Translations under genes and position numbers: made by a program
Part shown: piece after piece, positions 4,937-54,159 of the stretch
Position numbering within the stretch: the first letter of the stretch is position 1
Layout of the letters: every line of letters starts with the position of its first letter
From: an uncultured Desulfosarcina sp.
Lineage (GTDB): Bacteria; Desulfobacterota; Desulfobacteria; Desulfobacterales; Desulfosarcinaceae
Direction: 5' to 3'
Length of the DNA stretch: 64,000 nucleotides
NCBI GenBank assembly: GCA_963674945.2
Contig: CAXXWQ010000003.1
Coordinates: forward strand, 384,001 to 448,000
Notes under the pieces: model-generated
Seen by the model: only the letters and a program-made list of their open reading frames with translations
The model's database searches: none
What the model was told of the DNA's origin: nothing

Positions 4937-5281
4937 ATGGTTGAATATATGGTCAGACGTCCTTTAAAAAGGTCTCCGGTACATCCTGGCGAAATTTTAC
5001 GTGAAGATGTTTTAAAGAGTCTCGATTTGACGGTAAGCGAGGCAGCAAGACGACTCGGTGTCTCTCGTCAGCAACTTCACCGCATATTGGCCTGTACACA
5101 TCCAATTTCAACAGAAATGGCGCTTAGACTTGGAAAATTTGCCGGTAATGGGCCTGGGTTATGGCTACGTATGCAACAGGCTGTAAATTTGCACACAAAC
5201 TCAGAATTTTTTGCAGATAAACTCAGAAATTTTCAGCCATGTAAAAGCCAGTACGCAAAACACCTGCTCGAATCAAATTGA
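4937..5281 (+). pseudogene. higA: HigA antitoxin interrupted at ~5181 by the prophage end; ORF runs on into phage DNA
   Basis: PVHPGEILREDVL...EMALRLGK...LWLRMQQA, after which homology stops exactly at TGTAAATTTGCA. Confidence 0.85.
5182..5232 (+). repeat. Prophage end (Mu R-end equivalent): TG plus two tandem ~22-bp transposase-binding sites
   Basis: TGTAAA TTTGCACACAAACTCAGAATTT TTTGCAGATAAACTCAGAAATTT. Confidence 0.85.
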
Positions 5282-30503: not shown

Positions 30504-30779
30504 ATTGTGTCGCTTCCGGTCGCGGGTCTTATTGCAACCCTTCCCACAATAAAACGGAGGGCATTTGGTTTGTGATGATTAGTTTAAGCAGTATTTCTCT
30601 TTGTGGTCAAGCCATTTTTTGGTAGTGCTTCTATTTTTCTTTTTTTATTCCATATTCGTCTCATATGCTGCACGCTTATCGGGGCAATCTCTTCAATAGC
30701 CCATTACCCCATCGCCTCTTGCCAGATTAAGGCCAATTCCTCGGCACTGTTGATGCTCCGCATGATGGGCAGAAGAGTT

Positions 30780-33106: not shown

Positions 33107-33580
33107 TTAATCAAAGGTCTGGCCCTTCGGGACCGCTGAATTTTCAGGTTGGATTTTTTTTCGTCTTCTGAAATTTCGCCATTCATTTTTGTCCAAGTAA
33201 GCAAATGATTGCGGTGCATTTGCCAAGGTTTTGCATTCATTCAAAGGTATCGCTTTATTGAACGACTTAGGATTATCAAGCAAATAGCATTTGCCAATCT
33301 CATATCCATAATAATATTTTGAAAAGTCCTGGTAGTTGATGAACCCTAAACTTCCAAACTCTTTCCATAATTTTTCAGGTGAATCGATAATGCATTCTTT
33401 TACATCACAGTAGCCTAATATTTCTTGGTCTGGTTTCGTTGAATAGATAACGATCTTTTGAATGTTGGACGGTACTCCATTGCGCCTGAATTCGACTGTT
33501 TTCTTGCCAGACAATATTGCTCGCGCATATATTGGATTTATTGATAAAATAATTATATGCTTAGTCTTGTTTTGATCCAA
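33107..33580 (-). CDS. ASCH domain protein
   Basis: ILSINPIYARAILSGKKTVEFRR, IYST.P, APQSF. Confidence 0.85.
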   Translation of the reverse strand: MDQNKTKHIIILSINPIYARAILSGKKTVEFRRNGVPSNIQKIVIYSTKPDQEILGYCDVKECIIDSPEKLWKEFGSLGFINYQDFSKYYYGYEIGKCYLLDNPKSFNKAIPLNECKTLANAPQSFAYLDKNEWRNFRRRKKIQPENSAVPKGQTFD

Positions 33581-34927
33581 TTTACACCCTCTTGTTTTAG
33601 CTTCATAATTGATTGTGGGGCACCCTTTACAACCCCAGATCGTTTTAGCTCTTTTAACCCTAAAGGTGTCGTTAACCCTTTTACATATCGGAACCTAATA
33701 GCTAAAGTCGGTTTGATGCAAAACTCGGCTATGCTATTATAACTATATACAGTTCGTGAGCCAACATGTCTGGCTATTTCATTAGGATTTGTAGTACGTA
33801 TAAAATCTTCGACGGATCCTATTGCAGTAATTCCTTTAACATCTTCAGATCTATAGAAAAAAATGTTGTCACCAGTCTTAATTTGTTTATTGAGGGAATG
33901 GCATAGATATGCTTTTTTAATGCTATTTCCACAAGGACGAGTCTCGTTGAATATCTGGATTTGTGATTCCAGCTCAGGAAAGAGAGCTGAATGAAATATT
34001 GGTTTAATAGGAATTAAAAACGTATTGTTTCCTTTAAATAGAACACGCCTAGGACCATATTTGATATGGAATTCAAGAGGCGACATATCTTCAATATCTT
34101 GAGATGAATAAGTAAGTTTTTTATAAACGATTAATTCCCCGTTTTTACATTGTTTATTAAATACGCTGAATCCGAATGATTCTGAAAATGCGATTAAGTC
34201 ATCGTATTTTGGAAACGTTGTGAAATAGATATAGTCATAATTATTGTTGTCAGCATAGTCGAACACCGCCTTGAATAAAAGCTCGCCAAATCGCTTTCCA
34301 AATTCCATTTCGGATATCTTAAAGGTGCATAATTTTAAAGTCCGGCCTCTATCACCAGTTGGAACTTCTTCTTCGCTTTTAATTATACAAATTCCTGATA
34401 AACGAACCATTCCATCACTACATATCACATACGCTTCTCGATGATCTCTCTTGCATTTCGTCAACCACTTGTCAAACTTGGGGGAATAGTCTTGGCGTAA
34501 TGAGTTAAAAATTGGATCATTTTCATTCAGCTCGTATATATAAACTTTTTTAACGGATGGCGGTGGTGGCGGCGATTTATCAAAAAGATCAAGTAAAAGA
34601 GCTATCGCATCTTTAAGAAAGAACACTCTCGATTCAATACCTGATCGGTGGGCTTTACGGTGTAGCTTTTTATCTTCCGTGATTAGAAAATCAACTGCGT
34701 CACCTTTTACCGATGCCAGAAGGCAATTATCTACATAATCGTTACTGCCCAAGACAGGCTCGCCAACTATGTCTGGATCTAAAAGAGATAATGGAGGTGG
34801 GGATTCTATTCTTTCATATTTTTTTATAAGCCTTTTTCTTAACGTAGACCTTTCAGTATTCCTATCCCGATCTAAATCAAATCCGACAGCAGGATGAACA
34901 TAAATAGTGTTTCCTGACTTTTGAATT

Positions 34928-36493
34928 GTACGCATTCACAGGGTAACACCCATTGGATTAAATCCAGGAAAGGTTTGGCTCTAAATTTCGAAAATAGGAA
35001 GTAATGCACTCCACGAGAAAAGGAAAAGTCTGCTTTGCTTGTAAGCGACAGGTTTCTTTCAGTGACAATATCCGCTCAACCCAACGGTTTCCTTTCTCGC
35101 TTTGGGTGCCAAGGCTTCGTTTCCGCCACAATACACCAAAGCGTAGCGCTCTTTCGGCACGATTGTTTGTGGGATCGACGCCCTTGTGATCCATAAACAC
35201 CCATAGGTTGTTCATTTCCCGGATGATCTGCCGAGCGAGTTTTCCTGCATCCGTTTTATCGGGTTCCCAAAGGGACACGGTAAACAAGAAGAATGTATAA
35301 AAATCCGACCATTGCTTTGGGTCGGGTGGCTCTTTGGCAAACGATACCAGTTGTCTCAACCAAGCGGCGACGATTTCTCCGAAGCGACGTAAATCCGGCT
35401 TCTTTCTCTCCGCCAGAGAATCGGCCTTACGGATTAGATGAGCCAGGCACGTCTGGCGGTGAACCCATTTTTGATACAGGCCGTAACCGTCGCTGACCAG
35501 AATGCCGTTCCAGTCCTGGATGAGTGCTTCGAAAGCCACCTTGGAGCGATGCGGGTCTATGCGATAGAAAGCAACCCGCTCGTTGACCATGGCCCACAGC
35601 CAGTGCAGATCGTTTTCTGTAAACCAGGAGGTCTCATCGATATAATTGCACCAGAAACTTCTGGCGATACCCCCGATACGTTCATACACAGGCAAAATCG
35701 CCATTGAAGTGCGGTCAACGATTTTTTGGATCGTCCCCGTAGCAATGGGAATGTCTAACACAGAGTCGCATAACTGCTTTACGTCCATTCGGCTCATCCC
35801 TTTAATACCGCTTAATTCACCAACAAATGCGGTAAATCGGGGACCGTATCCGCTCGACAGGGCAGATGGCAGCTTGGCTTTGACAACCTTCCCGCAATTG
35901 GGGCAATCGCACTTGTGCAGAATATAGTGGCTGACTTCCATTTCGATTTTGGGAAGTTCGATCTGTTGATGGGTGTAAAAAGGCTTCATCTTTTCCTGAT
36001 CGAACACCGAATGACCACAACTGCAGCATTTTGGCATCAACGAATGTTGCTTTGTCGGCTCGAGCAGTTGTTGCTGGTGCGGTTTGTGTCCTTTTTGTCC
36101 GCCTTTGGATCGCTTGCTCTTTTTCTGTTTTCTTTTCTGCTTGCTAAAAGGCGGATCGGATGAGGGCGGTTTACTGGAATTACGAGAATTCATTTTGGTC
36201 TGGACTTCAAGTTTCTCTATGCGTTTTTCATGGGTCTCAACCCATTTTTGCATATCATGAAGCGCCTGTTCCAGATATAGGATGTAATTTCTCACCGCCT
36301 CTGGTGTCAGTTGCCAATCGAGTTCTGAAAATGGTCTTTTGAGTGCCATGAAAAGCACTCTAACATAGTTAAAAGAAAAAATCTAGATTTATTTTAAATT
36401 ATTTCAGGCAGTTACGGTGCACACAATTTATGCTTTGTTTTCAATGGGTTAAAGGCCATGATGTCAGCCCTAAAATGCCCCGTGAACGGTTAC
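34928..36493 (-). mobile_element. IS66-family insertion sequence (single-ORF type)
   Basis: Ends GTAACCGTTCAC / GTACGCATTCAC; 8-bp TSD TTTGAATT at 34920-34927 and 36494-36501. Confidence 0.92.
34958..36358 (-). CDS. tnpC: IS66 family transposase
   Basis: NSRNSSKPPSSD, GGQKGH, DETSW, LVSDGY, CLAHL, PTNNRAERALR. Confidence 0.92.
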   Translation of the reverse strand: MLFMALKRPFSELDWQLTPEAVRNYILYLEQALHDMQKWVETHEKRIEKLEVQTKMNSRNSSKPPSSDPPFSKQKRKQKKSKRSKGGQKGHKPHQQQLLEPTKQHSLMPKCCSCGHSVFDQEKMKPFYTHQQIELPKIEMEVSHYILHKCDCPNCGKVVKAKLPSALSSGYGPRFTAFVGELSGIKGMSRMDVKQLCDSVLDIPIATGTIQKIVDRTSMAILPVYERIGGIARSFWCNYIDETSWFTENDLHWLWAMVNERVAFYRIDPHRSKVAFEALIQDWNGILVSDGYGLYQKWVHRQTCLAHLIRKADSLAERKKPDLRRFGEIVAAWLRQLVSFAKEPPDPKQWSDFYTFFLFTVSLWEPDKTDAGKLARQIIREMNNLWVFMDHKGVDPTNNRAERALRFGVLWRKRSLGTQSEKGNRWVERILSLKETCRLQAKQTFPFLVECITSYFRNLEPNLSWI

Positions 36494-37493: not shown

Positions 37494-37610
37494 GCCGAAC
37501 GCTGCTGTTCACCAGGCGGGCGGCGCCAAAGGAAAGCCGCCATAAAGCGAAAAAAAATACTTAAAAAAACGCCGAGGTAGCCCGCTCAGTGTGCAACAGC
37601 CTTGTTATGG
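37494..37610 (-). other. attC integron recombination site
   Basis: Minus strand: CCATAAC..GCTGTT(G)CAC...GTGAACAGC..GTTCGGC; extrahelical G and variable terminal loop. Confidence 0.8.
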
Positions 37611-38836: not shown

Positions 38837-38902
38837 CCAGAACGTGCAGGTAACTTGCCGGGCGCGTCGTTTTGCCCGGTCAAGTTCACTTGCTGGTTAT
38901 GA
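38837..38902 (-). other. attC integron recombination site
   Basis: Minus strand: TCATAAC CAGCA AGT(G)AACTTG(A)CCGGGC..GCCCGGCAAGTTACCT GCAC GTTCTGG; two extrahelical bases. Confidence 0.85.
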
Positions 38903-39411: not shown

Positions 39412-39505
39412 TCATAACATTAATATTCTATAGGACTTAAAATAGATGATTTCATACTACCACGTATTTAGAACCAGTTCTTTATCAGGAAATTGGAAAT
39501 GTAGA
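39412..39505 (-). other. attI-like leader of cassette array 1
   Basis: Ends CTATAGAATATTAAT|GTTATGA; homologous to 49788-49857. Confidence 0.6.
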
Positions 39506-39510
39506 TGGAC

Positions 39511-39539
39511 AGAATATCCAAAGATATTAAATATGTCAA
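39511..39539 (-). promoter_or_regulatory. Sigma70 promoter driving cassette array 1 (Pc-like)
   Basis: TTGACA-17bp-TATTCT. Confidence 0.7.
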
Positions 39540-39630
39540 TTACAGGCTGGTATGGTTTCGAACGCGCAGAATTTGGTAGGTAAGCACCCTTGCCCAAGGG
39601 TTGCCACGAGTATCATCGTTTTTCCTATTA

Positions 39631-41286
39631 CCTGTTTCCGTGGCACAAAACCTGATTAAAACACTATAACCAATTGATAAAACATATATATTATGGTAAT
39701 ATTAGGGCACTAAACGCTCACTTCGGAGGTGAAATCAATGCGGCGTCCGATCACCATAAAACACGAGATGGAAAAACTTGCCAGTCATAGCGGATTGATC
39801 AATATCGGCGCATTACTTGATGCGATAAATTTCAGGTTCCGTTTCGAAAAGATCAACGGCGTCCATTGTGTAGACCCGAAAATTTCTCATGGTGACATTT
39901 TAGCTTCGATGATTGCTCTCATGAGTATTGGTAAACCTGATTACGATGCGATCGAGATTTTTCGTGAGAAGCAAGAATTTTTCAACAAGGCCATTGGCAA
40001 TCGTGCATGCCCGTCAAGCCCGACATTGCGTCAGCGAATCGATTTGATCGGCAACCAAGCCGATAAGCTGATTAAGGATGCAGGCGTTGATTTGGTTCGA
40101 TCCTGCGCTCCGGCGATTTCACCCATCCAAACCAGTGCGGGTGATTTCCTTCCTTTGGATATGGATGTGAGTCCGTTTGACAACTCAAAGACTCAAAAGG
40201 AAGGCGTTTCCAGAACCTACAAAGGCACGGATGGCTTCGCTCCGATCTTTGCCTACCTGGGCACCGAGGGGTATCTGGTGAATCTTGAGTTCAGAGAAGG
40301 AAAACAACACTGCCAGAAAAACACCCCCGAATTTATCAACGCCACCTTGGATTATGCCAGGCAAATTACCGATCAGCCTATTTTGATGAGGTTGGATTCA
40401 GGAAACGACAGTCAAGACAACTTTCCTGACGATTCACGAAAGAATGTCCACTTTATCATCAAACGCAATTTGCGTAGAGAATCTGTTCAAAAGTGGGTTG
40501 ATCTGGCAAAAAAATCCGGCAAGCAACAGCATTGCCGCTCAGGAAAATGTGTATGGATCGGAAAGACGATTGAAGACATCAACGGCAATCCATTGCGCTA
40601 CCCAATCATCTTTGAGGTTACCGAAAGGCATACCAAAAAGGGCCAAGTACTGCTGTTCCCCGAGTATCAGATCGATACCTATTGGTGCAGCCTCGCACAG
40701 TTGCCACCGGATGAGGTGATTCGACTTTATCACGATCACGGTACCAGCGAGCAGTTTCACTCCGAACTCAAATCCGACATGGGCCTGGAGCGCTTGCCGA
40801 GCGGTCATTTTTCCACCAATAGCTTGATTCTTCATTTGGCGATGCTGACGTACAACATGCTACGGATTATCGGACAAATCAGCATCGAAGAGAGTGATCC
40901 GACTGAATTGCCCGGTATACGCCGGAAGAAAGTTACCCGGCGTCGAATCCGGACAGTCATGCAGGACTTGATGTATATGGCCGGTCGATTAGTAACCAGA
41001 AGTAGAAAATGGTACATATCCTTTGGCCAACTCAATCCATTTTCCAAACTGATGGATCGGATTTATCTTCGTCTGAATTTGCTTTCCGCTATGAAGTAGC
41101 TATAATTTTTAAAAGAACAATTTTACAGGCATTTGCTTGGTGATTTGCTATGGCTAAAGAATGAGAAACAGGAGCAAAATTCCTTCGAAATTTGAAAATA
41201 GTGAGAAAAATTATCAACAAATGATGGTGTGTGAGGCAATCGCCCCGCGCCAATCCTAACAGCAAAAATTAGGCCACTGATTCAGG
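39631..41286 (+). mobile_element. IS1380-family insertion sequence
   Basis: IRs CCTGTTTCCGTGGC / GCCACTGATTCAGG; 5-bp TSD TATTA at 39626-39630 and 41287-41291. Confidence 0.92.
39729..41099 (+). CDS. IS1380 family transposase
   Basis: PSSPTLRQR, LDMDVS, RLDSG, YHDHGTSEQFHSELK. Confidence 0.92.
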   Translation: MKSMRRPITIKHEMEKLASHSGLINIGALLDAINFRFRFEKINGVHCVDPKISHGDILASMIALMSIGKPDYDAIEIFREKQEFFNKAIGNRACPSSPTLRQRIDLIGNQADKLIKDAGVDLVRSCAPAISPIQTSAGDFLPLDMDVSPFDNSKTQKEGVSRTYKGTDGFAPIFAYLGTEGYLVNLEFREGKQHCQKNTPEFINATLDYARQITDQPILMRLDSGNDSQDNFPDDSRKNVHFIIKRNLRRESVQKWVDLAKKSGKQQHCRSGKCVWIGKTIEDINGNPLRYPIIFEVTERHTKKGQVLLFPEYQIDTYWCSLAQLPPDEVIRLYHDHGTSEQFHSELKSDMGLERLPSGHFSTNSLILHLAMLTYNMLRIIGQISIEESDPTELPGIRRKKVTRRRIRTVMQDLMYMAGRLVTRSRKWYISFGQLNPFSKLMDRIYLRLNLLSAMK

Positions 41287-41371
41287 TATTAACTATAGGC
41301 TCCCCGCTCTCAGTTCCAAGCTAAACCCCTCATCACTCATAACGCATCACACATCACCGCCGCAAAGCGGC

Positions 41372-41989
41372 CTAAAGTACCGCAATATCCAACGCCACCG
41401 GAGCCCATCGATCATCCGGAGAAACACGCTCGTATATCCTCAAATAGCTTTTGGATCCGACAACCTGCATACTGTCGCTGATCGCATTCATGGCCCGAAG
41501 CCATTTTTCGTCATCAATGGCCAGGCGACGAAGCCCAAGAATACGGCTGGTATTCAAACGCCCCTCCTTGTCAACCTGGAATGCATCCATGATGATGGTC
41601 TTGATTTCGTCCCGGCTGCCGTCCGCCCACTCCGTTATGCATTCGTCCACAAGCGCTTTTGCCGCCTTTAGTCGTTCGTCGAATGTCAGATGTTCGCTGA
41701 TGGCGATCTGGACCTTTGTTTTTCCGTCGAATGATACGAGTGACGTGTTCCCCTTGCGCCCCCCGAGAATGACGTCATATTTCTCGGCGGATAGCTCGAC
41801 GAACGCCTGGACATCCCCCATCGCCCTCGCCTTGAAATCGGCGATCTTCAGTTGAAGGGATTTCGCCGCATCCGCGATCTCGCATACCAGTTTATGGCGT
41901 TCCTGGTCGATCTCCGGGATCATGGACTTGGGTACCAGGCGGCCATGGGCGTCTCTCATGTAATCGTTCAGGTTCAGTTCTTCAGACAT
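41372..41989 (-). CDS. DUF3164 family protein (Mu-like early gene)
   Basis: YMRDAHGRLVP, GGRKGN, FDERLKAAKALVDEC, AFQVDKEG, SKSYLRIYER. Confidence 0.9.
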   Translation of the reverse strand: MSEELNLNDYMRDAHGRLVPKSMIPEIDQERHKLVCEIADAAKSLQLKIADFKARAMGDVQAFVELSAEKYDVILGGRKGNTSLVSFDGKTKVQIAISEHLTFDERLKAAKALVDECITEWADGSRDEIKTIIMDAFQVDKEGRLNTSRILGLRRLAIDDEKWLRAMNAISDSMQVVGSKSYLRIYERVSPDDRWAPVALDIAVL

Positions 41990-42002
41990 CGTTTATCCTC
42001 CT

Positions 42003-42215
42003 TTAAATTTCGTCACAGGCTTTCTTTTTCTCGATATGCGAATCCTCGACAAGGTCGTCGGTCCTGCATTTTAAAATGTAGCCGGCCAGCGCCGATTTCA
42101 GGCACTCCGCTAGGAAAAACAGGTTTTTTACGGCTTTCGGTGAAAGTGAACCGTTCAAGGATTCCCCCTGCCGTCCGATCACCTCCACAATCTCCTTCAC
42201 CTTCCGATACCCCAT
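42003..42215 (-). CDS. Phage hypothetical protein
   Basis: 70 aa; GGAGG RBS; in the early operon. Confidence 0.45.
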   Translation of the reverse strand: MGYRKVKEIVEVIGRQGESLNGSLSPKAVKNLFFLAECLKSALAGYILKCRTDDLVEDSHIEKKKACDEI

Positions 42216-42243
42216 CGTAATCCTCCACGCTCCATGCTCTCAG

Positions 42244-42516
42244 CTATGAGCTCTCAACTCTCAGCTTTTCCTCATACAGTTTCCGGCTCAGTACGCTCAC
42301 CGCCTTCTGGTCGATATGATCGATGGAGATGATCACATCCATGTCCGGGTGCCAGTACAGGGCCAGGCGCCGGTACTCCTCGCCGTTTTTCAGGCGAAAC
42401 GACTTGCAGCTTTGCACCCGAACGCTTCGCCGGATGATTTCCCGGATCAATAGCTCCGTCGGGGCGCCCCCGACGCGCTGTCGCCAGTTATCGATGAAAT
42501 GCCAGGAAAACTTCAT
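42244..42516 (-). CDS. Phage hypothetical protein
   Basis: MKFSWHFIDNWRQRVG; coupled to gemA. Confidence 0.6.
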   Translation of the reverse strand: MKFSWHFIDNWRQRVGGAPTELLIREIIRRSVRVQSCKSFRLKNGEEYRRLALYWHPDMDVIISIDHIDQKAVSVLSRKLYEEKLRVESS

Positions 42517-42932
42517 CGTGCGCTCACCTTCCTCTTACCGCGTGCCCGCCTCTGGTGGTACGTCAACGCGGCAACGATCTTCCGCAAGCCATCCGGATCG
42601 CACCACTCCACCATATCCGCCCCGCACATCCGCTGGGCCATGCTGTCCACATAGGATCGTGGCAGGTTCATGTCCAGGCACATGGCGTTGATCTTGGACA
42701 TCAGCCGCTTTTTATACTCCGTAACGGAATTGAATCCACGCAGCCTTTTCCTCTTTTTAAAACCAAGGTGCTCGAAATGTTCGAGCACGCTTGAAAAGGT
42801 CCTGTCGTTCAGATCCCTGCTGCTCCTGGCGCCATTGCCGTGGGCGGCCAGGATGTCCTGGTACTCGGCATCACTCAATCCGAGCTGAGACTTCGCCACA
42901 TGGATGAGCGCTTTCTTCCCGTTGCTGATCAT
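42513..42932 (-). CDS. gemA: Mu gp16/GemA family protein (DUF1018)
   Basis: LIHVAKSQLGLSDAEY, SSRDL, KINAM, LRKIVAAL. Confidence 0.85.
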   Translation of the reverse strand: MISNGKKALIHVAKSQLGLSDAEYQDILAAHGNGARSSRDLNDRTFSSVLEHFEHLGFKKRKRLRGFNSVTEYKKRLMSKINAMCLDMNLPRSYVDSMAQRMCGADMVEWCDPDGLRKIVAALTYHQRRARGKRKVSAR

Positions 42933-43110
42933 GTCCCCTCCACGGTTGCAGTTTGTTGAGAACAGCCCTGGGCATGACCCACGTGGAAATCGGCCACACG
43001 CTGATGGATCCGCAGACCGGGCACGTGCTGTCATCACGGCGGTCCTTCGCGTCGAAAACCATGTCGCAATTGGCGCAGAAACAGGCGCTCTCGATCCGAA
43101 ATGCGTTCAT
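42871..43110 (-). CDS. Small zinc-ribbon protein
   Basis: CANC...CPVCGS; AGGAGG RBS. Confidence 0.55.
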   Translation of the reverse strand: MNAFRIESACFCANCDMVFDAKDRRDDSTCPVCGSISVWPISTWVMPRAVLNKLQPWRGHDQQREESAHPCGEVSARIE

Positions 43111-43138
43111 ACAGCCTCCTTTAAATCCTTTCCGATCG

Positions 43139-43708
43139 TTATTCATCGATCGCCTCCACCACGGCCACGGCAACGTCCAGGCTTTCCTGGATCGCGTGCA
43201 GGGCCTCTCTTGCAGTCTTTTTTAATTCCCGGATCTGTCGCATCTTCTCCGCGTTCTCATCGTTTCGTACCAGGTTCGGCCCGGGGTCATCGATCATCCG
43301 GTATTTGGACGGCTGATTGTCCGGCATCTTGATCATTCGCATCACACCCCGCCGGACCAGCATCTGCAGATACTCCTTGGCAGTGTTCTCCTCCACCTTG
43401 CAGTTGGCCATCAGGTCGGTAACGGAAATGGTGTTCCGCCGGTTCGCCCGGATCAAACGGTACATGCATCTGGTTTTCGTGGCCGGATGGGGATCGTACC
43501 GCTTGCCCGTGTACCGGATCACGCCGGGACTGATCCGGACAACCTCATCACGCTTGATGAAATCCCGCATGGCGTTGTAGAGACGCTGCTTCTCTTTGTC
43601 CTCGATCATGTCCAGCCGCTCTGCGATTTCCTGATATGTAATCTGGTCCCGGTCCTTGAAATCGATGCGCATGATGTCTCGGATGCGTTGGGCGAAAGAT
43701 ACGGTCAT
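43139..43708 (-). CDS. Winged-helix phage protein downstream of MuB
   Basis: Two wHTH-like segments (AKEYLQMLVRRG...YRMIDDPGP); AGGAGG RBS. Confidence 0.65.
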   Translation of the reverse strand: MTVSFAQRIRDIMRIDFKDRDQITYQEIAERLDMIEDKEKQRLYNAMRDFIKRDEVVRISPGVIRYTGKRYDPHPATKTRCMYRLIRANRRNTISVTDLMANCKVEENTAKEYLQMLVRRGVMRMIKMPDNQPSKYRMIDDPGPNLVRNDENAEKMRQIRELKKTAREALHAIQESLDVAVAVVEAIDE

Positions 43709-43752
43709 GGAGACCTCCTGATGTTGATGACCTCGTAAAAAGCTGCTGTTCG

Positions 43753-43820
43753 GACGGATTCGTAAAAAGCCCGAGATCAAGGATTGCGAGTCTCGAGGTC
43801 GGGCTTTTTACGAATCCGTC
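43753..43820. repeat. Family A palindromic repeat (short copy) overlapping the MuB stop
   Basis: GACGGATTCGTAAAAAGCCCGA...TCGGGCTTTTTACGAATCCGTC perfect 22-bp IR. Confidence 0.75.
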
Positions 43821-44574
43821 AATGTTTGGCCCAGCGGATGGCCGCCTTGATGCCGTCCGTTGCGATATCCGGCGTGATTTCCTCGATATTTTTTGCGTTG
43901 GCGTACTGAACGCAGTAATGCAGGGCGCGCTTTACCAGACGGAAATTGCCGTCGGTGGTATACTTTGTGGCGGTTTTATGCAGGATGGCCGCGACATCCG
44001 CAGTGATCTGAACACCGATGGCTTCTTTTGCGAAAATGATCACGTCGCTCTGTTTCATGGGGGAGAATTTCACAGGACTGAAGGTGCGCGTCTGGATTCC
44101 GTCTTTGCCTCCTTGTTTAAGGAGGTTCATCAGATTATGCTCACCGATCAACACAATCGGGCACGTGGTCACGCGTGTTATATCGCGCATCAACTCGAGG
44201 TGGCCCGGTTTCAGCCTGCCTGCCTCATCGATAAAGATTATCGTATCCTGGTGATCGAACAGATAATCGTTTATGTCGTTGAAACATCTTCCTTTGCGGC
44301 TGGCAACGTTTTCGATTCCCAACTCGAAGCAAAAATCCCGCAGAAATTCCAGCTCGCTTGAAATCCATATTGCCGTTGATTCGAGATATATCGTGTTGTT
44401 GTGATTGGCGTGGTACCATTTGATGGTTTCGGATTTACCGAGTCCGGCCTTTCCGTATACGACACCGAATTTTCCCTCTCCGACATCCATTCCGAGATCG
44501 TCCATCATGATGACAACATCCCGGACGTTCTTTGTCTGAATGAAAACCGAATGAGATATACTCAATTTCGTCAT
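43819..44574 (-). CDS. MuB-like AAA transposition ATPase
   Basis: GKAGLGKS, IFIDEA, PIVLIGE, GNFR. Confidence 0.9.
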   Translation of the reverse strand: MTKLSISHSVFIQTKNVRDVVIMMDDLGMDVGEGKFGVVYGKAGLGKSETIKWYHANHNNTIYLESTAIWISSELEFLRDFCFELGIENVASRKGRCFNDINDYLFDHQDTIIFIDEAGRLKPGHLELMRDITRVTTCPIVLIGEHNLMNLLKQGGKDGIQTRTFSPVKFSPMKQSDVIIFAKEAIGVQITADVAAILHKTATKYTTDGNFRLVKRALHYCVQYANAKNIEEITPDIATDGIKAAIRWAKH

Positions 44575-44617
44575 ATGAACACTCCCTCCAATAAACGGTT
44601 AACCCCTTTCAGATTTG

Positions 44618-46750
44618 TCACGTCGTCCCCGTCATCACCGACGCGCAAACGCGGGCCTGCTCCCAATACCCGCTCTTTGCAAGCGTCTTGTATTTCGGGG
44701 TCTGCTCGAAATACCGCATGAAGGTGAGCCACTGTTTCGGGATCATCACGCCGCTCGCCGCCAGGTGGACAAGCGTTTCATACCGGTCCGGTTCATCCAT
44801 GCCGTCGAGCTCGGCGAAAACGTTGGGCTCTTCTTTCTCGTGGTTTTCGAAATACGCCGCGGCCTCCGCCTCGATCTGCTTTTCGTCGGCTGCGGTGAGA
44901 TGCTTTGGAGCGGATTCTCGATCGATTATCACTGGGCCGGTAGGCGTTACACCCTCACGCAGTAGTTGCCGGCGGTGGGCCGGCAGCACCTCTTTTTCCA
45001 ACAGCAGCTTGGACAGGCCGCTGGCCAGCTTGTACTGGTGGTTTTTGATCGCGAGCTGTCGGTCCAGTTGATCCACATCCTCTTCGGTGCCAAGCGGTCT
45101 TGCTGCCGGGTGGGTCTTCTCCTGTTCAAAGGCGAGGCAGACGAATTCATCCTCTTCAAACACCGCGATATAGCTCGGGTCCTGCAGATCGTACCGCACC
45201 TCGACGCTATGGTGGCGGCCGCACAGTTTGTCATGGTAGTAGTAGCTGCCCATATGAGAGATCCGGCTGGCGCGGACCACCGCGTCCTTTCGGGCCCACA
45301 TCAAAGCGGTCAGTTTCGCCGGATCGATTCCCTTGCCGCGGCCCGGTTCGAAAAGATCCATCGGCGCCCAGCCCTTCAGGTACTTGCTGCGCGGTTGCGG
45401 ACGGTGGGCGTATTCGTCGAACCATTCGGCCACCATTTGGTGGGCCATTTCCATCGTCACATACTCGCCGCCCATCACCTTTTCATAGACCTTCCTGTGC
45501 AGCTTCTCCCCCCGGTTCATGCGCGGCGGCTTCTTGGCGATGCTGGTTCCGGTGTAGCTCGGCGATTTTCTCTCCATCTCCGCCATCGTTCCGAAAAATC
45601 GCTCCACGGTCTTGCTCTGCCCGTGATACCCCCACGCGAATATCGTCTGGATGCCGAGCTGGTCGTACAGGCCCTTGAGCCCGGCCTGCGAAAGATCGGT
45701 GTTCTGGAAATAGTTGGCCTTGAACGCCTTGCCGTTGTCCAGGTAGACGACGCGAGGGATCTTGCCCAAAAATAGGATGGCCCTGCGAAGTGCGGAGGAA
45801 ATTGCCACGGTGTTTTCCGTCGGCATGATCTCCCATCCGCACGGCATGCTCGATCGCATGTCGTAGAAAGTGATCAGCGTCATCCGCTTTGGTTTGCCGG
45901 TCCACGGATTCAGGATGTTGAAATTGAGCTTGTGCCCGTCCGCCACCAGCACATCGCCGACATTGATCAGTTCCGGGTTCCGCTCGATGGACAGGCAGCA
46001 CTCGTCGTTCCACCGCTTCTTGCCGCCACGCTGAAAACACCAGATATCATAATTGTGCTCTTTGAAATCCATAATCCACCGGCGGTACGTGGATGGGTTG
46101 TGGCCGTTGGGGATGCCCACCGCCGACATCCGTTTTTTCGCCTCCCGGATCACCTCCGAAATGAGCAGAGCGTTGGGATGAAGTGCCACCTGGAGAATGA
46201 TCGCGGCCTGTTTTGCCGTGATGATCCGCTTCCCTTTTCGCGCCTTGCCCCGCCGGTCCGCCAGGTTCCCGCCGTCCCGCACCGTCCGCTTCCATCCCTC
46301 GATGGTCTGCCAGGACACCGGCCCGAGGATTTCGTGGATCTGTTGATAGATGAGCCCGTTGTTGTAGGCCGTCATGAAGTTGTCCCGGGCCACCGCCTTC
46401 TTACCGTGACCGGCGGCGGATATGGTCCTTACATAATGACCGAGAAGATCGGCCTTGGCGCCGAACGTTCGCCGCTGCGCATCGCTCATCTCCTCCACCG
46501 GCGTCTTTTTCGCCGGAAGATGGGATGAGGATTCTGCGGGCAGGTTGGAAAGCCGGTCCTTATTATAAAGGACGCGGATATCCTCCGGCAGATTGTCGAC
46601 CGGGTACCGCCGGATCTTCCCCCCGCGCCCCTTGCCCGGCATCTCCATGAAATGCCACCCCTCCTTCGATGCGCGTGCCTGGAGGGACCGCACGCCGACA
46701 CCGGCGAATTCGTGGATCTGCTGAATGGAAAGGGTCGTCTCGCCAGTCAT
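44618..46750 (-). CDS. MuA-like DDE transposase
   Basis: N-terminal Mu HTH (RASKEGW..GRGG..YPVDNLP), LVADGH, YLDNGKAF, SKTVERFF, VRYD C-terminal domain. Confidence 0.92.
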   Translation of the reverse strand: MTGETTLSIQQIHEFAGVGVRSLQARASKEGWHFMEMPGKGRGGKIRRYPVDNLPEDIRVLYNKDRLSNLPAESSSHLPAKKTPVEEMSDAQRRTFGAKADLLGHYVRTISAAGHGKKAVARDNFMTAYNNGLIYQQIHEILGPVSWQTIEGWKRTVRDGGNLADRRGKARKGKRIITAKQAAIILQVALHPNALLISEVIREAKKRMSAVGIPNGHNPSTYRRWIMDFKEHNYDIWCFQRGGKKRWNDECCLSIERNPELINVGDVLVADGHKLNFNILNPWTGKPKRMTLITFYDMRSSMPCGWEIMPTENTVAISSALRRAILFLGKIPRVVYLDNGKAFKANYFQNTDLSQAGLKGLYDQLGIQTIFAWGYHGQSKTVERFFGTMAEMERKSPSYTGTSIAKKPPRMNRGEKLHRKVYEKVMGGEYVTMEMAHQMVAEWFDEYAHRPQPRSKYLKGWAPMDLFEPGRGKGIDPAKLTALMWARKDAVVRASRISHMGSYYYHDKLCGRHHSVEVRYDLQDPSYIAVFEEDEFVCLAFEQEKTHPAARPLGTEEDVDQLDRQLAIKNHQYKLASGLSKLLLEKEVLPAHRRQLLREGVTPTGPVIIDRESAPKHLTAADEKQIEAEAAAYFENHEKEEPNVFAELDGMDEPDRYETLVHLAASGVMIPKQWLTFMRYFEQTPKYKTLAKSGYWEQARVCASVMTGTT

Positions 46751-46752
46751 TT

Positions 46753-47358
46753 TTATCCCTCGAGCAATCGTTTCAGGCCGTCGATGATCTTGATCATCTT
46801 TTTCCGGTCGACTCCCTCGAACCTGTTTTTTCTCGCATCCCGAATACTCTGAATCAGATCCTCGAACGCTTTTTTGAAGATGTCGGGGAGCGTTCCGATG
46901 GAATTCTCGATCATATTCCTCGTTCGTGGCTGCGGGTTTCCACGCAGAAGGTCCACCGCCCACACCACATGCTTGGACATCACCACGTCCGCGCCGGACT
47001 CCTTCGCCCGGTTGATGGCCATGTCCCAGGCCTTTGCCTGCTCTTCCGGTTCCAGCTTCGCAAGCGGCCGTGCCAGTGACTCTTTTTCGGGCAGCACCGG
47101 ACAGGTTTTGTCCGCATTGCGGACATTTTCGATCACCTCAACACCGGTGATCAGTTGGTAGGCCGTCGACCTGGCGCAGTCGAATCGCTCCTTGGTGTAC
47201 TGCTCGAAAGTCGCGTGGGACATCCGGTACAGCTTCCGGTCCCGGATCTCCCGCAACGCAAACCCGACCTTCATCCACGACACCATGTTGTCCTCGACAA
47301 CCCTCTCAAGCCGGTCCAGGTCGTTGATTTCGTTCATTGATAGTTGTGTTTTGTCCAT
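46753..47358 (-). CDS. Phage early protein (DUF3102-like)
   Basis: VGFALREIRDRKLYR..TFEQY..ERF, ESLARPL. Confidence 0.65.
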   Translation of the reverse strand: MDKTQLSMNEINDLDRLERVVEDNMVSWMKVGFALREIRDRKLYRMSHATFEQYTKERFDCARSTAYQLITGVEVIENVRNADKTCPVLPEKESLARPLAKLEPEEQAKAWDMAINRAKESGADVVMSKHVVWAVDLLRGNPQPRTRNMIENSIGTLPDIFKKAFEDLIQSIRDARKNRFEGVDRKKMIKIIDGLKRLLEG

Positions 47359-47430
47359 CTTATCTCCTTTGTAACTTTTTTGATTTCCTGTTATGTTTAA
47401 TTCATTGACAATTCATCTATCCCGGAGGTT

Positions 47431-47841
47431 GTGGTGTCGAAAAAACAGAAAAAGATGGAATACAGCTCAGACCAGTCTCTTGGTATGCTTGCAGGTTGCC
47501 CGTTTAGTGGATTTGGACCATGCCAGGCAGAAAAGTGCGTTTTTTTCGTAGCCGTTCCACCTGACTTAAAAGAAAGAGCGTGCGTCATTACTGCGTCCTA
47601 CGTTTTTCAATCCATGAAGGATGTACTTGAGACAACGGTATTTTTGGAAAGGACGTTAGAAAAAGACGGCATCCTTCCCAAGAGTCATGTAGCCGCTCAA
47701 GTTGCCGAATCTCTTGTTGGATGTTTGGATCGTCTTGACGGTATCTACGGTCATCCAAAGACTGACGAATCATTGAAAGAATTGATTCGCACATTGAAAG
47801 GCCAAATTCGGTACCGCCTAGAAACCTTTGCTGAATCATGA
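47431..47841 (+). CDS. Hypothetical protein, antisense within the early operon
   Basis: GGAGG RBS; CPF...C....C motif; lower GC than neighbours. Confidence 0.55.
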   Translation: MVSKKQKKMEYSSDQSLGMLAGCPFSGFGPCQAEKCVFFVAVPPDLKERACVITASYVFQSMKDVLETTVFLERTLEKDGILPKSHVAAQVAESLVGCLDRLDGIYGHPKTDESLKELIRTLKGQIRYRLETFAES

Positions 47842-47883
47842 TGCTGCTCCTTTTCGTTTTCGTTATTCCAAGAGGATTCGTCA

Positions 47884-48141
47884 TCATGCCGCGTCCTGCT
47901 CCCAGAAACGTTCACCCAGACGCGATTCGATAAATTCTCGTATCTCCTTTGCCTTTCGCCGCCCGTTCACCACCTGGGAGATGTATTGGGGGGACACGTT
48001 AAGATGGTCCGCCCATTCCGCCATCTTTTCCCCTTTCCGGATGGCCGTCGCCCGGATCCGACGGGCGATGATCTTCCGCCCGACGGCCTTCCGGTCGTCC
48101 TTCTCGTCAACAAAAATCGTGAATGTCACTTTCCGCTTCAT
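47884..48141 (-). CDS. Cro/Ner-like HTH regulator
   Basis: MAEWADHLNVSPQYISQVVNGRR...IREFIESRLG..FW. Confidence 0.75.
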   Translation of the reverse strand: MKRKVTFTIFVDEKDDRKAVGRKIIARRIRATAIRKGEKMAEWADHLNVSPQYISQVVNGRRKAKEIREFIESRLGERFWEQDAA

Positions 48142-48569
48142 TACAGCTCCGCCTCGATTTTCCGGACAAGCCGGTTTTTCTCCTTGATGGCCAGCTTGGC
48201 CTCGGCCAGCCTGATGAGTTTCTGCTCCCGCTCGCCGACAACTCTCAGATGCAGCGGCTGGGCGATGGCGTCGAGAACGGAGCACCGCCCCACCGCCGCA
48301 CAGAAAATCGGAACCGCCTTGAAAGGGATGTTCCTCGTCGGCTCGTTCAGGTTCAGCCATTTTTCAAACGTGTCGATGGTCAACTGCTTGCCACTGCCGT
48401 TGACCAGGCCGACACTGTAGCTCACAGCCAGATCGTTCATCTTGTCCACGATCTGCTCACGGGAAAGTCCGCAGGCGCGGACATCTTCGTTCATGGCCCT
48501 TTTGACGGGCCGGACAACATTTAAGGTGGGTCGATTAAAGAGGTTCAGTTGGATGGGTTTGTTCGTCAT
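48141..48569 (-). CDS. Phage regulatory protein (CII-like)
   Basis: GLSREQIVDKM, TFEKWLN, PIFCAAVG; first gene of the early operon. Confidence 0.65.
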   Translation of the reverse strand: MTNKPIQLNLFNRPTLNVVRPVKRAMNEDVRACGLSREQIVDKMNDLAVSYSVGLVNGSGKQLTIDTFEKWLNLNEPTRNIPFKAVPIFCAAVGRCSVLDAIAQPLHLRVVGEREQKLIRLAEAKLAIKEKNRLVRKIEAEL

Positions 48570-48820: not shown

Positions 48821-49300
48821 ATGACAAACGAATTAGAAAAATTAGATTTCCCAGCCAGACTTGAAGCCCTTATAGACCACACAGGACTACCTAAAAAGGT
48901 ATTCGCAAAAAATTGCGGGATAAAAGAAAAACAACTGTTCGTTTATCTAAGAGGTGAAGCTGAGCCGGGTATGAAGGCTTTGCGTGGCATAAAAGAATAT
49001 TATCCAAACGTAAGTATCGACTGGCTAATATCAGGCATCGGTCCATCTTACCTTGAACAAAAAAAACCGGCGCCTTCAACTGTGCAGGATATTAAGTATG
49101 AAAGTGTCCTCAATGAATTTGAGGACAAGGATTTCGCGATAAAGGTCAATCAAGCACTGGCGGCCATAGAAAAGTTGTCGATGAAGGTTTTCTATGAGGT
49201 GGGTGGATATATAAAGAGAGCCGCTCAGGAAGCAAAGCAGGAAGATCAAGCCTTCGATGAAGATCGATTGACTGGCACGGATGACAATTCAAAAAAATAG
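48821..49300 (+). CDS. Prophage repressor (XRE HTH)
   Basis: FAKNCGI...YLRGEAEP...VSIDWLISG.G; divergent from the early operon. Confidence 0.85.
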   Translation: MTNELEKLDFPARLEALIDHTGLPKKVFAKNCGIKEKQLFVYLRGEAEPGMKALRGIKEYYPNVSIDWLISGIGPSYLEQKKPAPSTVQDIKYESVLNEFEDKDFAIKVNQALAAIEKLSMKVFYEVGGYIKRAAQEAKQEDQAFDEDRLTGTDDNSKK

Positions 49301-49398
49301 ATGCTGACGAGCCTTCCCTGTTCAAGCAGAGAGAAAAAGATGATTCCCGTTGTGATCCGCCCGTCAGCATAATCGATTTTCACAGCGGCCATGTAGAA

Positions 49399-49722
49399 AT
49401 GATCCTGAACACCTCTGGCTACATCATCACCGCCAGGGCCTATGGCACCATCGAGAATGCGGCGAGCCATGAACTTTGGTACGCCAGAGGTCGTTATCTC
49501 CAGGATTTTAAGTACCACATCGATGAAATAGATCTAATCATCACCACGATCCAAAAAGCCGCAAATGAATTGCTTGAAACTCCGTTCAATTTTGGATGGA
49601 GAGGGGTCACAAGAGTCGGCCTTGTCACGCCGATAAATGACAGATTCGTTGTCCTGCGGTTATACGCTCCACGTGAAAAGCTGGAAGATACGACTTCGGA
49701 ATTTGATAAAGCAGGAGGGTAG
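49399..49722 (+). CDS. Hypothetical protein
   Basis: 107-aa ORF after the repressor. Confidence 0.45.
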   Translation: MILNTSGYIITARAYGTIENAASHELWYARGRYLQDFKYHIDEIDLIITTIQKAANELLETPFNFGWRGVTRVGLVTPINDRFVVLRLYAPREKLEDTTSEFDKAGG

Positions 49723-49756
49723 CGCCATGAATGTTTTCAGCACTTAACCACCGTAT

Positions 49757-49864
49757 TTCCCGGGATATCTCCAACGCACCTATAATCCCACATCTCCAAA
49801 TAAAGAATTAGCTCCAAAACGATCATAGACTGAAACCGTCTATAGAATGTCAATGTTTTAAGCC
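49757..49864 (+). other. Promoter (-10 TATAAT at 49781) plus attI-like leader of cassette array 2
   Basis: Ends CTATAGAATGTCAAT|GTT; homologous to the leader of array 1. Confidence 0.55.
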
Positions 49865-49894
49865 TACTAAAAATATTAAATTAGGGAGGAAAGA

Positions 49895-50479
49895 ATGACC
49901 GCTAAAGGTGAAAAAGATGCAATTTTGTTTGCATTAGCTGAGTTGTTTGCAGCTTTAAAAGGAAACATGAATGCTAATGCGGTTCGTTTTGATGAGGATA
50001 AAATTCCAACCTATGGGCTCCGTGTTGCTGAGCAGTCTTTTGGAACGGCCTATCAGTTAGTTAACGAACAGTCGATTCCATTACCCAAACCCATCACCAT
50101 CGTTATTGAGGCTGCTATTAAGGGAGCTGGTATTGGAATAAAAGCATGGGCACAATCTATGAAAGATGATTGGGGAATGATAGCTCCGAAATGCGGCGCA
50201 CATTGTAAATTGTGCAATTCGAGAAGTACAGCTCTATACTTTAACGCTATTTCAAAAATATTTGATTATAGTATAAAAAGTAAATCAAAATGGGACAAAA
50301 AAGACGCTCAAAAAGTTTCAACAATAAGCGAAAGTGTCAATAAGTCTTTGGTTGACTATGCTGATGAGGTTGTTAAAACGAGTTCTTTCGCTAATGCCTG
50401 GACTGCATGGGACGCCTTTGGTGATAATCTATTTTCTCTTGCGGAACCATTAGCAAAGCTTCTATCAACTGATTATTAA
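49895..50479 (+). CDS. Hypothetical protein (gene cassette)
   Basis: 194 aa, GGAGG RBS; lies between attI-like and attC-like sites. Confidence 0.7.
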   Translation: MTAKGEKDAILFALAELFAALKGNMNANAVRFDEDKIPTYGLRVAEQSFGTAYQLVNEQSIPLPKPITIVIEAAIKGAGIGIKAWAQSMKDDWGMIAPKCGAHCKLCNSRSTALYFNAISKIFDYSIKSKSKWDKKDAQKVSTISESVNKSLVDYADEVVKTSSFANAWTAWDAFGDNLFSLAEPLAKLLSTDY

Positions 50480-50489
50480 AACATACTGT

Positions 50490-50554
50490 GGCTTATAATA
50501 GTATTAAGTGCGACGGCAAAAAGCCGTCGCACCTTATGCCGAGCTTCGTTAGAA
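50490..50554 (+). other. attC-like site with degenerate R''
   Basis: GGCTTAT..GTATTAAGTGCGACGGC AAAAA GCCGTCGCACCTTATGC..GTTAGAA. Confidence 0.65.
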
Positions 50555-50572
50555 AAAACAGAGGAACAAAAT

Positions 50573-52021
50573 ATGATTACTGATTTGCTATCCCCCCAAC
50601 TTTTCGGGAATGAGGCAGGTGAAGATGAAGATCTATGTCTTCTGAGCTCATACTTTGTCGACAAACCTCTCTTCAAACCTTTTTATAGTGATCAAAACAA
50701 ACTCATGATTGCTCGTGCCAGAAAAGGGATTGGCAAATCGGCACTTTTAAGGAAGACATTTGCTGGAGTATGTGATTCAGATACAGATATTGCTATTTAT
50801 TTAAAAGGTTCAGACCTAATAGCGTTGCAACAAATTGACTCCGATACACCTCACCACTTGATATTTGGATGGCAACAACGTATTTGCTCCAGAATAACTC
50901 TAGAAATTGGAAAGAGACTGAAACTGGCTTTGTCTGATGATACAATAACACTTGTAGAAAGTGCTGAACTGGCAGGATTTAAAGGTAGGAATGTTATTGG
51001 ATCCCTATTAGATCGTCTCAAACTTAAGTTGTCGAATGCAGAAATAGAATTGTCAAAAATAACCCCTGCTGATACAACCCAACTCCTAAATCGATACTTA
51101 GAAAATAAAAAAATTAAAGTTTGGGTTTTTATTGATGATATTGATGCAACATTTATCAACACAGCAGACCAAAAACTTCTGATCTCAACATTTTTTTCAG
51201 CCTGTAGATATTTGGTAAATGATGTTGATGGCCTCATGATCCGTTCATCAATACGGTCTGATGTATGGTCTGTAATTTGCGATGACGAAGCAATGGATAA
51301 ATGCGAGCAATATATGGTTGACATCACTTGGTCAACTCGTGAAACAGGCGACATTTTGAAGAAAAAAATACTCAGCTATTTTCTTACGAAATACCCCAAT
51401 AGCAAAAAATACCAGGAAATGAGAATCTCTAAGAACAAGGGCATCCCTGTCTACAATCTTGTTTTCAAAACTCCATTTCCCTGGGGTAAAAAAATGCTGC
51501 CACCCGACAAACCTATTCATATCATGAGTGCGGGAAGACCAAGATGGGCGGCACAACTGTGTAAGTTAGCAGGCAAGCATGCCGCCACTAAAAATCACTC
51601 TCTCATTCGAATAACGGATGTATCTAAAGTAATGGATGTTTACGGAAGATCAAGGTTAAGCGACTTGTACAAAGAACATGCGCATCAATGCAGTAAACTT
51701 GTTGATATAATTGAATCATTCTCTGGGTGCCAACGCCGATACGCAACAGTAGATTTGTTAACTCACATCACGAACCGAATCATTAAGCGATTCGGCTTAC
51801 CTAAAATTGATGGAATCGAACAAGGTCGAGATAGTTTATATATTTCACACTTCTTGTTCAGAGTTGGATTTATTTATGGTCGAAACGATACAGGTGATGC
51901 GCCACTATCATTTGTAAACTATGATGAAAGGCCTGACCTTCTGGTTTCGACAGCAAATCTTGATGATGGGTTAACTTGGGAGATCCATCCAAGTTACAGG
52001 CAAGCATTAAAAATAAAATAG
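50573..52021 (+). CDS. P-loop ATPase (Sll1717/FunZ-like), gene cassette
   Basis: FGNEAGEDE, ARKGIGKS (Walker A), VFIDDID (Walker B), RPRW, IHPSYR. Confidence 0.8.
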   Translation: MITDLLSPQLFGNEAGEDEDLCLLSSYFVDKPLFKPFYSDQNKLMIARARKGIGKSALLRKTFAGVCDSDTDIAIYLKGSDLIALQQIDSDTPHHLIFGWQQRICSRITLEIGKRLKLALSDDTITLVESAELAGFKGRNVIGSLLDRLKLKLSNAEIELSKITPADTTQLLNRYLENKKIKVWVFIDDIDATFINTADQKLLISTFFSACRYLVNDVDGLMIRSSIRSDVWSVICDDEAMDKCEQYMVDITWSTRETGDILKKKILSYFLTKYPNSKKYQEMRISKNKGIPVYNLVFKTPFPWGKKMLPPDKPIHIMSAGRPRWAAQLCKLAGKHAATKNHSLIRITDVSKVMDVYGRSRLSDLYKEHAHQCSKLVDIIESFSGCQRRYATVDLLTHITNRIIKRFGLPKIDGIEQGRDSLYISHFLFRVGFIYGRNDTGDAPLSFVNYDERPDLLVSTANLDDGLTWEIHPSYRQALKIK

Positions 52022-52070
52022 ACCGAACTCCATTTCTTAATAGACATCAAAAACTGGCGCCAGAGGTCGG

Positions 52071-52183
52071 AAGGGGTCAAGTCTGCTCTTGGCTCATATA
52101 GAGATTGTGGATTGAATTTGCCCTCAATGGTCTTTAAATAGAGCAAGCTTGGATCGGCGATTTTTATCCCTATTTGGGATGTT
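52071..52183 (+). repeat. ~112-bp repeat, copy 1 (copy 2 at 53078-53189)
   Basis: AAGGGGTCAAGTCTGCTCTTG(G/A)CTCATATAGAGATTGTGG...CTATTTGGGATGTT is shared. Confidence 0.85.
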
Positions 52184-52232
52184 ATTAAGGCGTCCATAGA
52201 ATATCAATAATAGTCACAATAAAGGAAAAAAA

Positions 52233-53077: not shown

Positions 53078-53189
53078 AAGGGGTCAAGTCTGCTCTTGAC
53101 TCATATAGAGATTGTGGGTTGAATTTGTGCTCAATTTTCTTTAAATAGTACAGATTTAAATCATTTAATTTGTTACTATTTGGGATGTT
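53078..53189 (+). repeat. ~112-bp repeat, copy 2
   Basis: Colinear with 52071-52183; similarity stops at GTT. Confidence 0.85.
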
Positions 53190-53786: not shown

Positions 53787-53809
53787 AAATTTCTGAGTCT
53801 ATCTGCAAA
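53787..53809 (-). repeat. Internal transposase-binding site of the Mu L-end equivalent
   Basis: 22/23 match to the reverse complement of 5210-5232. Confidence 0.85.
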
Positions 53810-53918
53810 TCGTTAGACATCCCTAACAGAATCCAGCCAAATTTCTTATTTTTAAATATCCTGCGCCCAGCCGCCGGAATCGTACACAACAAATACCATC
53901 AACGCGCCATAACCTTTT

Positions 53919-54120
53919 GTTATCACGTCATTCCCGACCCACACAAGTTTCACAAAAGGTCCACAAAAGTGCCATCAAATCCCCAATTCAATATTTCTGA
54001 GATAGTCTGCTCCCCCATAGTTATCACGTCATTCCCGACCCACACAAGTTTCACAAAAGGTCCACAAAAGTGCCATCAAATCCCCAATTCAATATTTCTG
54101 AGATAGTCTGCTCCCCCATA
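53919..54120 (+). repeat. Perfect 101-bp tandem duplication containing the terminal transposase site
   Basis: 53919-54019 equals 54020-54120; each copy ends ATTTCTGAGATAGTCTGCTCCCCCATA. Confidence 0.9.
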
Positions 54121-54159
54121 TTCCTTGGAGCCCCTGGCCGTATGCGCAAAGGGGGCTAC

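Follow-up and report, generated by a model that had tools for sequence, protein, structure and literature searches.

Putative promoter-attI leaders head two integrase-less cassette arrays in a Mu-like prophage of an uncultured Desulfosarcina

Results

The prophage and its two cassette arrays

We analyzed a 64,000-nt stretch of an uncultured Desulfosarcina genome (G000:C3:384001-448000; hereafter, the window) containing a prophage that combines a Mu-type early region, a divergent repressor and an E217/Pam3-type virion module. The early region (41372..48569, minus strand) encodes a transposase, an AAA_22 B-like protein, GemA and DUF3164, and this transposase/B early module identifies the element as a Mu-like transposable prophage. 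Divergent from the early operon lies a c-like phage repressor (48821..49300, plus strand), which matches PHROG repressor families and has homologues beside ner/TnpA in related prophages. It is followed by ORF X (49399..49722, plus strand), a 107-aa phage gene. In the second Mu prophage of this genome, a homologue (31%) occupies the same position behind the repressor, and X is found behind the repressor in other Mu-like prophages as well. Its homologues were detected solely by tblastn or by eye, in prophages, with no relatives in metagenome_contigs or in the protein database. ORF X was ruled out as an intI relic, as the frames on its opposite strand match no Pfam family and no IntI. The second Mu-like prophage is present in two near-identical copies (G000:C3:1965418-2007111; C1:409362-434175 with C3:1-8021).

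A ~20-bp repeat occurs in three copies at 53790..54125 (minus strand), inverted to two copies at 5190-5235. These are candidate transposase-binding ends and, taken as the phage ends, would put the right array described below inside the element. Inverted repeats are thus present at both candidate ends, where no target-site duplication was seen. The candidate end repeat is part of a ~100-bp tandem duplication (53925-54125) that sits just before tRNA-Arg and tRNA-His, and at the opposite candidate end a higA-like HTH gene (4937-5183) is cut, its remainder not found in the genome. At 30600-30780, the stump of a Mu gene, recognized by eye and whole in the other Mu prophage of the genome, suggests a deletion ahead of the late genes. 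The junction of a Mu-type transposition module with an E217/Pam3-type head and tail module (5329-48569) recurs in G155 (portal 62%, capsid 70%) and G414 (TerL 92%, portal 75%), so the prophage belongs to a lineage of transposable phages whose virion is not of Mu type.

The right leader (49723..49857, plus strand; crossover G49855/T49856) begins at the stop codon of ORF X. The earlier note had placed a TATAAT just upstream, and the hexamer is indeed there (49781..49786, plus strand); as a promoter it is doubtful, having no -35 match, reading TTTAAT in both close paralogs, and lying in a region (49650-49900) in which a promoter scan found none. The leader opens onto cassette R1 (49856..50548, plus strand), whose start core GTTTTAA is complemented by TTAAAAC at 50476-50482 (7/7). 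Its 194-aa protein (ORF 49895-50479), previously taken for an orphan, has six homologues at 53-88% among 177 candidates. The hairpin behind it (50476..50554, plus strand) does end in GTTAGAA (50548-50554), as had been noted, but is a decayed attC: the inner stem is intact and folds alone, and both spacers are lengthened, by 14 and 3 extra bases relative to a near-identical attC of the host integron. The next gene is a P-loop ATPase (50573-52021), rightly recognized as such and now assigned to the Sll1717 family; it makes up the probable cassette R2 (50549..52070, plus strand), behind which no attC was found. With one decayed attC, the right array falls short of the two or more attC sites that define a CALIN, and so is SALIN-like. 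A third copy of the leader family, with a degenerate core (ending AATAAT), lies ahead of a 181-aa ORF at 52071..52211 (plus strand; HMM E 8.6e-7), and a partial fourth begins at 53078.

The left leader (39416..39560, minus strand; crossover G39418/T39417) was thought to mark the opposite end of the phage; its actual position is between the early and the late genes, with 34 kb separating it from the far end, and a multi-copy IS (DDE_Tnp_1_4; 39630..41290, plus strand) separates it from DUF3164. It contains a sigma70-type promoter match, TTGACA-17-TATTCT, at 39539-39511 (10/12). Cassette L1 (38843..39417, minus strand) encodes a 162-aa ORF, pairs its core GTTATGA with TCATAAC (7/7) and carries a canonical attC (38837-38902, minus strand; fold z -4.8). 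Cassette L2 (37500..38842, minus strand) encodes a Ser/Thr kinase and has an attC at 37494-37610 (core match 6/7). Cassette L3 (36682..37499, minus strand) encodes an HNH protein and retains an inverse core (6/7), with the rest of its attC lost, and is followed by an IS66. With two full attC sites, a third, truncated cassette and no integrase, the left array is a CALIN (at least two attC sites). The cargo region behind it contains a candidate defence pair, PDC-M11A/B (33107-34935; E 1e-157 and 1e-36).

Relationship of the two leaders

The letters and coordinates quoted in the earlier note are present in the sequence, and its central observation, that the two leaders are homologous, withstood comparison with shuffled controls. 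Alignment of the right (49720-49900) and left (39600-39395) leader regions gave a local score of 238, against a mean of 145 and a maximum of 208 in 2000 dinucleotide shuffles; under stricter scoring, the alignment reached 30 against a shuffle maximum of 29. When the 90-nt right leader was compared with 141,506 windows of the genome, the left leader came next after two close paralogs, though by a narrow margin (174 versus 166 for the next best). Taken alone, the pairwise match is real but modest; the homology is firm because the family is multi-copy. The leaders flank the early region, both pointing away from it, and both end at GTT, as had been described: G/TT is the cassette entry point, with an inverse-core match of 7/7 on both sides.

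The leaders are 58% identical to each other and have different nearest relatives. In an unrooted tree of ~200 columns, the left leader pairs with a non-Mu copy (C4:1343 kb; 80%, support 0.93) that lies within a tyrosine-integrase island, and the right leader clusters with two other copies of the genome (88% and 81%, support 1.0). The claim of two independent, diverged copies is therefore probably right, and the two leaders are likely to have arrived separately. Two further loci carry the right leader together with ORF X, each with different cargo: one is at C4:568 kb (92% over 415 bp), the other at C3:2341 kb (83% over 452 bp).

Contigs assembled from two runs of one sample carry both leaders without differences and no cassette-excision joint, although contigs cannot show its absence. 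A 49843-52071 joint, considered as a cassette excision, proved to be the C4 paralog. A 1207-nt contig of run X3 matches the window up to 49345 (398 nt, 48948-49345), and may have other DNA behind the repressor in that sample.

A dispersed non-coding family

The leaders belong to a non-coding family whose members end in AGACGTCTATWGAATATYAATG/TT, and both have undergone internal deletion. Across the alignment, members show zero to two palindromic 37-bp units and a fixed 3′ end, with ~170-250 bp conserved. The right leader lacks both 37-bp units, 74 bp having been lost between GTCTA direct repeats, and the left leader has a 62-bp internal deletion. A Hidden Markov Model built from 30 members of other genomes identified 11 places in this genome at E < 0.01, ten outside the window and one at window position 52143; on the reversed genome, the best E was 0.11. 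The same model misses the right leader (E > 1) and gives the left leader E 0.57, a result that counts against the explanation favored below; the scores are weak because 74 and 62 bp of internal palindromic units are missing. The proposed membership of both window leaders rests on their close paralogs and on the terminal 21 nt. The terminal 45-nt position weight matrix (PWM) score of the right leader is 15.5, against a maximum of -18.7 for GTT positions of the genome (1500 positions).

Among 300 other genomes of the order, pattern searches matched 15, in part by chance; they also matched 7 of 40 genomes of the taxonomic family and 34 metagenome contigs. In a phylum-wide sample, one of 400 other genomes matched, and there was no match to the leader pattern in viral_contigs. 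Desulfosarcina variabilis has five matches to the leader pattern; the exact pattern occurs three times in genome_contigs, where the D. variabilis match is a family member and the other two look like chance. At 33 family sites, the nearest upstream genes are mostly unrelated host genes, one being weakly phage-like and two belonging to IS, and no upstream transposase gene is common to these sites. The HMM matches in this genome do not lie at its two Y1_Tnp genes. A RAYT relic upstream of the leaders was sought by six-frame blastp and Pfam, and none was found. The family may resemble dif and REP sequences. Stray attI-type sites, as we interpret these copies, appear to be common in this order.

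Evidence that the leaders are attI sites

We identify the leader family as attI by cassette junctions and homology, with recombination by IntI putative. At both window leaders, the seven bases from the G of GTT have an exact complement (7/7) where the first ORF ends, which is the signature of IntI insertion. We extended this comparison to 54 non-redundant family sites outside the window, 48 of which had at least 700 nt downstream. Thirteen of these 48 show an exact match between the four variable bases behind the core and the inverse core that opens an attC-like hairpin, and 17 show a match when one mismatch is allowed, whereas 2000 rounds of a core-swap control gave means of 0.86 (maximum 5) and 5.2 (maximum 15), respectively; related genomes among these sites are not independent. 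Two of the 13 exact-match sites have a mutated GTT. At the remaining 35 sites, our heuristic found no exact core match, which weighs against an attI identity; the attC calls come from this heuristic, which misses sites and makes false matches in AT-rich DNA, and from folds.

The motif does occur where the earlier note expected an attI, ahead of first cassettes and, in one instance, beside intI. At G356:C2, a long-type intI and the terminal motif are arranged divergently, and the first cassette matches 7/7. Against this, the intI is frameshifted, and the match in G356 extends over no more than the ~35 terminal nt of the main subfamily. (The same frameshifted gene, at L284, G356:C2:19810-21290, heads an array of at least three cassettes.) Three loci without intI (L117, L120 and L309) share the ~230-bp layout of G356, and cease to resemble it near the expected start of intI. 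When a PWM of the terminal 45 nt was applied to 1294 GTT positions upstream of 92 intI genes (mean -56, sd 13), the top score, 11.2, fell on a genuine attI, that of a long-type IntI from G067 (L207), and a second such attI ranked eighth. Among 30 loci chosen for the likeness of their IntI to that of G067, there was no closer attI.

Other observations run counter to the attI reading: the HMM gave one partial match only on the 92 intI loci; no long-type IntI was found in this genome, which has one intact IntI, of short type and ~1.8 Mb away on C3; and the genome's own attI shares the motif only in part. As fits orphaned sites, an IntI lies within 1.5 kb upstream at only one of the 54 family sites (47 of which have at least 700 nt upstream). 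Neither window leader adjoins an intI gene, as attI does in a complete integron, and six-frame blastp and Pfam found no intI relic upstream of them. The sites also differ from attG, defined by a short GWT consensus with no extended platform, in the ~170-250 bp conserved across the family. A -10-like motif is present at 26 of 46 family sites against 13 in a reversed control; in the window, the left leader has its promoter match (10/12) and the right leader none.

The two slots in related prophages

For comparison, we used 18 of 19 related TnpA loci (G481 left out) and two viral contigs. A leader follows the repressor in one of 16 related prophages with at least 4 kb on that side (G392), and the inner slot holds a leader in none of the eight with late genes in view. 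These counts are not those of a conserved module of Mu-like phages. No related prophage among those examined has both platforms together, and no leader is present at seven viral DUF3164 loci. The closest phage, G414 (TnpA 72%, TerL 92%), has neither leader and carries other AT-rich cargo behind its repressor; in relatives, too, these slots are taken up by AT-rich cargo other than cassettes. The genome's own second Mu prophage has X and lacks the leader. Cargo behind the repressor of G155 (L275, G155:C2:4300-6500) shows attC-like relic hairpins by eye, with no family leader detected.

In G392, which belongs to another genus (TnpA 59%), a different family member, 53% identical to the window's paralog, follows the repressor and a small ORF directly at the stop, without the promoter part. 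The slot holds an attC array of at least four ORF blocks in the same orientation as in the window, and its core reads GTA. G392 is a second capture in one slot, and is one point in favor of a weaker form of the phage-design idea. Past the truncated prophage lies a further attC array (L273-L274, G392:C1:731900-745500) that contains repeated ORFs of 450 aa, which are probably copies of a group II intron.

The earlier note had read the pair of leaders as a selected, phage-specific design of two platforms. This is not upheld: the family is scattered over the chromosome and the order, mostly behind host genes; no relative has both platforms and G414 has neither; and the window copies have lost internal repeats, their arrays being broken by IS and attC decay. 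The leaders are real capture points, and not clearly a design of the phage.

Discussion

We consider it probable that both arrays are attI-headed CALINs derived from an orphaned promoter-attI of the long-IntI clade and lodged in two phage cargo slots. The leaders would be orphaned promoter-attI regions of an integron clade with a long (N-terminally extended) IntI, whose intI gene, we infer, was lost. IntI would have put the cassettes in at G/TT of each leader, either before or after the orphaning, and two different leader copies would have reached two cargo slots flanking the early operon, where insertions may be tolerated. The left array may be transcribed from its own sigma70-type promoter. 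For the right array, read-through from the repressor-X transcript is probable in the lysogen, since no plus-strand terminator lies between the repressor and the array, and the TATAAT is neither conserved nor paired with a -35. New capture would need a heterologous host IntI acting in trans. Both window leader copies look partly decayed, and the deleted accessory repeats, decayed attC and IS insertions suggest that they are past an active phase.

It is less plausible that the arrays reflect a selected trait, in which Mu-like phages recruit promoter-attI into the lysogeny-expressed repressor slot, and sometimes the early-late slot, and sample cassettes, for example for defence, with host IntI in trans. 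In G392, a different family member with its cassette array occupies the same slot in the same orientation; two further loci of the genome have the X-leader junction, with other cargo; a window attC resembles one in the host array; and hand arithmetic puts such a coincidence at ~1e-4 under uniform placement (11 copies, ~194 Mb, three informative prophages, 1 kb). Uniform placement is, however, the wrong null, given that the same slots in relatives hold non-cassette AT-rich cargo. The occupancies (1 of 16 repressor slots, 0 of 8 inner slots, none with both), the absence of the pattern from viral_contigs and from the seven viral DUF3164 loci, the GTA core of G392, the decayed right attC and the IS insertions in the prophage all argue against such a trait. 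We would be still more surprised if the motif were not attI-derived, being a dispersed repeat or element end that acts as a hot secondary (attG-type) site. It is multi-copy, has palindromic units and almost never lies beside intI, and according to the preprint account GWT alone suffices for attG insertion (10.1101/2022.09.11.507474); yet the intI linkage in G356 and the graded likeness to attI of long-type IntI favor an attI origin, and there is neither a common upstream transposase gene nor a match at the two Y1_Tnp genes.

We also doubt that the right array lies outside the prophage, in a tRNA-adjacent island of decayed platforms beside the phage. The same succession of X-leader, second leader and end repeat is indeed present at two places that have no phage, C4:564-568 kb (next to a tRNA) and C3:2341 kb; no target-site duplication was seen, and the rest of the interrupted higA was not found. 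X nonetheless follows the repressor in other Mu-like prophages, the leader starts at the X stop codon, inverted end-like repeats lie beyond the array, and G392 uses the same slot. Orphaned promoter-attI regions within two phage cargo slots remain our preferred reading.

Parallels exist for parts of this arrangement. Shewanella prophage M16-3 contains a CALIN with its own attI, described as inactive (Qi et al. 2023, PMC9892861), and is likewise a single prophage with two attI-headed cassette arrays. In that account, one M16-3 array keeps intI and the attI is of host type, whereas both window arrays lack intI, their phage is Mu-like and copies of the attI family are dispersed over many genomes. 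Like CALINs and SALINs as characterized in PMC4889954 and 10.1101/2022.09.11.507474, where 95% of CALINs are given as lacking intI pseudogenes, the window arrays are cassettes with attC and no integrase nearby. Both sources define CALINs and SALINs by attC only and attribute many of them to attG insertion at random; the arrays described here sit behind a promoter-attI leader from a family conserved over ~170-250 bp. The Delta-attI-type cassettes of class 1 and 2 integrons treated in PMC12901181 are similarly attI fragments out of their normal place, for which recombination is known, but they occur inside mobile-integron arrays, whereas the window family heads arrays far from intI. Regions of genomic plasticity in Mu-like phages are fixed left-arm slots with low-GC accessory genes that take varied cargo, and the study in PMC4378225 found no recombinase target at them; the window slots hold attI and attC sites. 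Trans action on CALINs is discussed in PMC9668308 and PMC4889954. In the literature we found no description of a dispersed, multi-copy, integrase-less attI family or of its capture by Mu-like prophages, and supplementary CALIN tables could list some of these loci. CALINs headed by attI in prophage cargo slots are thus of a known kind; what is new is a family of stray attI sites spread across the order, together with its second capture, in the slot behind a Mu repressor.

Current tools detect integrase-less arrays by attC alone, and such arrays are taken as debris or random insertions. With a recognizable attI family at the head of dozens of arrays, one could test directly whether a single integrase acts in trans on many distant docks, and also how CALINs arise. 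Should the repeated capture behind Mu repressors prove to be selected, cassettes, defence-like ones among them, would have a means of spread in transposable phages. More speculatively, integrase-less promoter-attI modules might spread as units of their own (for example, as IntI-made circles entering secondary sites) and be active in trans, with many satellite docks per integrase; Mu-like prophages would then repeatedly capture docks behind the repressor, expressing host cassettes in the lysogen. The host integron array itself (L071, G000:C3:2186000-2205999) is interrupted by several IS elements and intron-like pieces, and its first cassette may be a DarT-type toxin-antitoxin pair.
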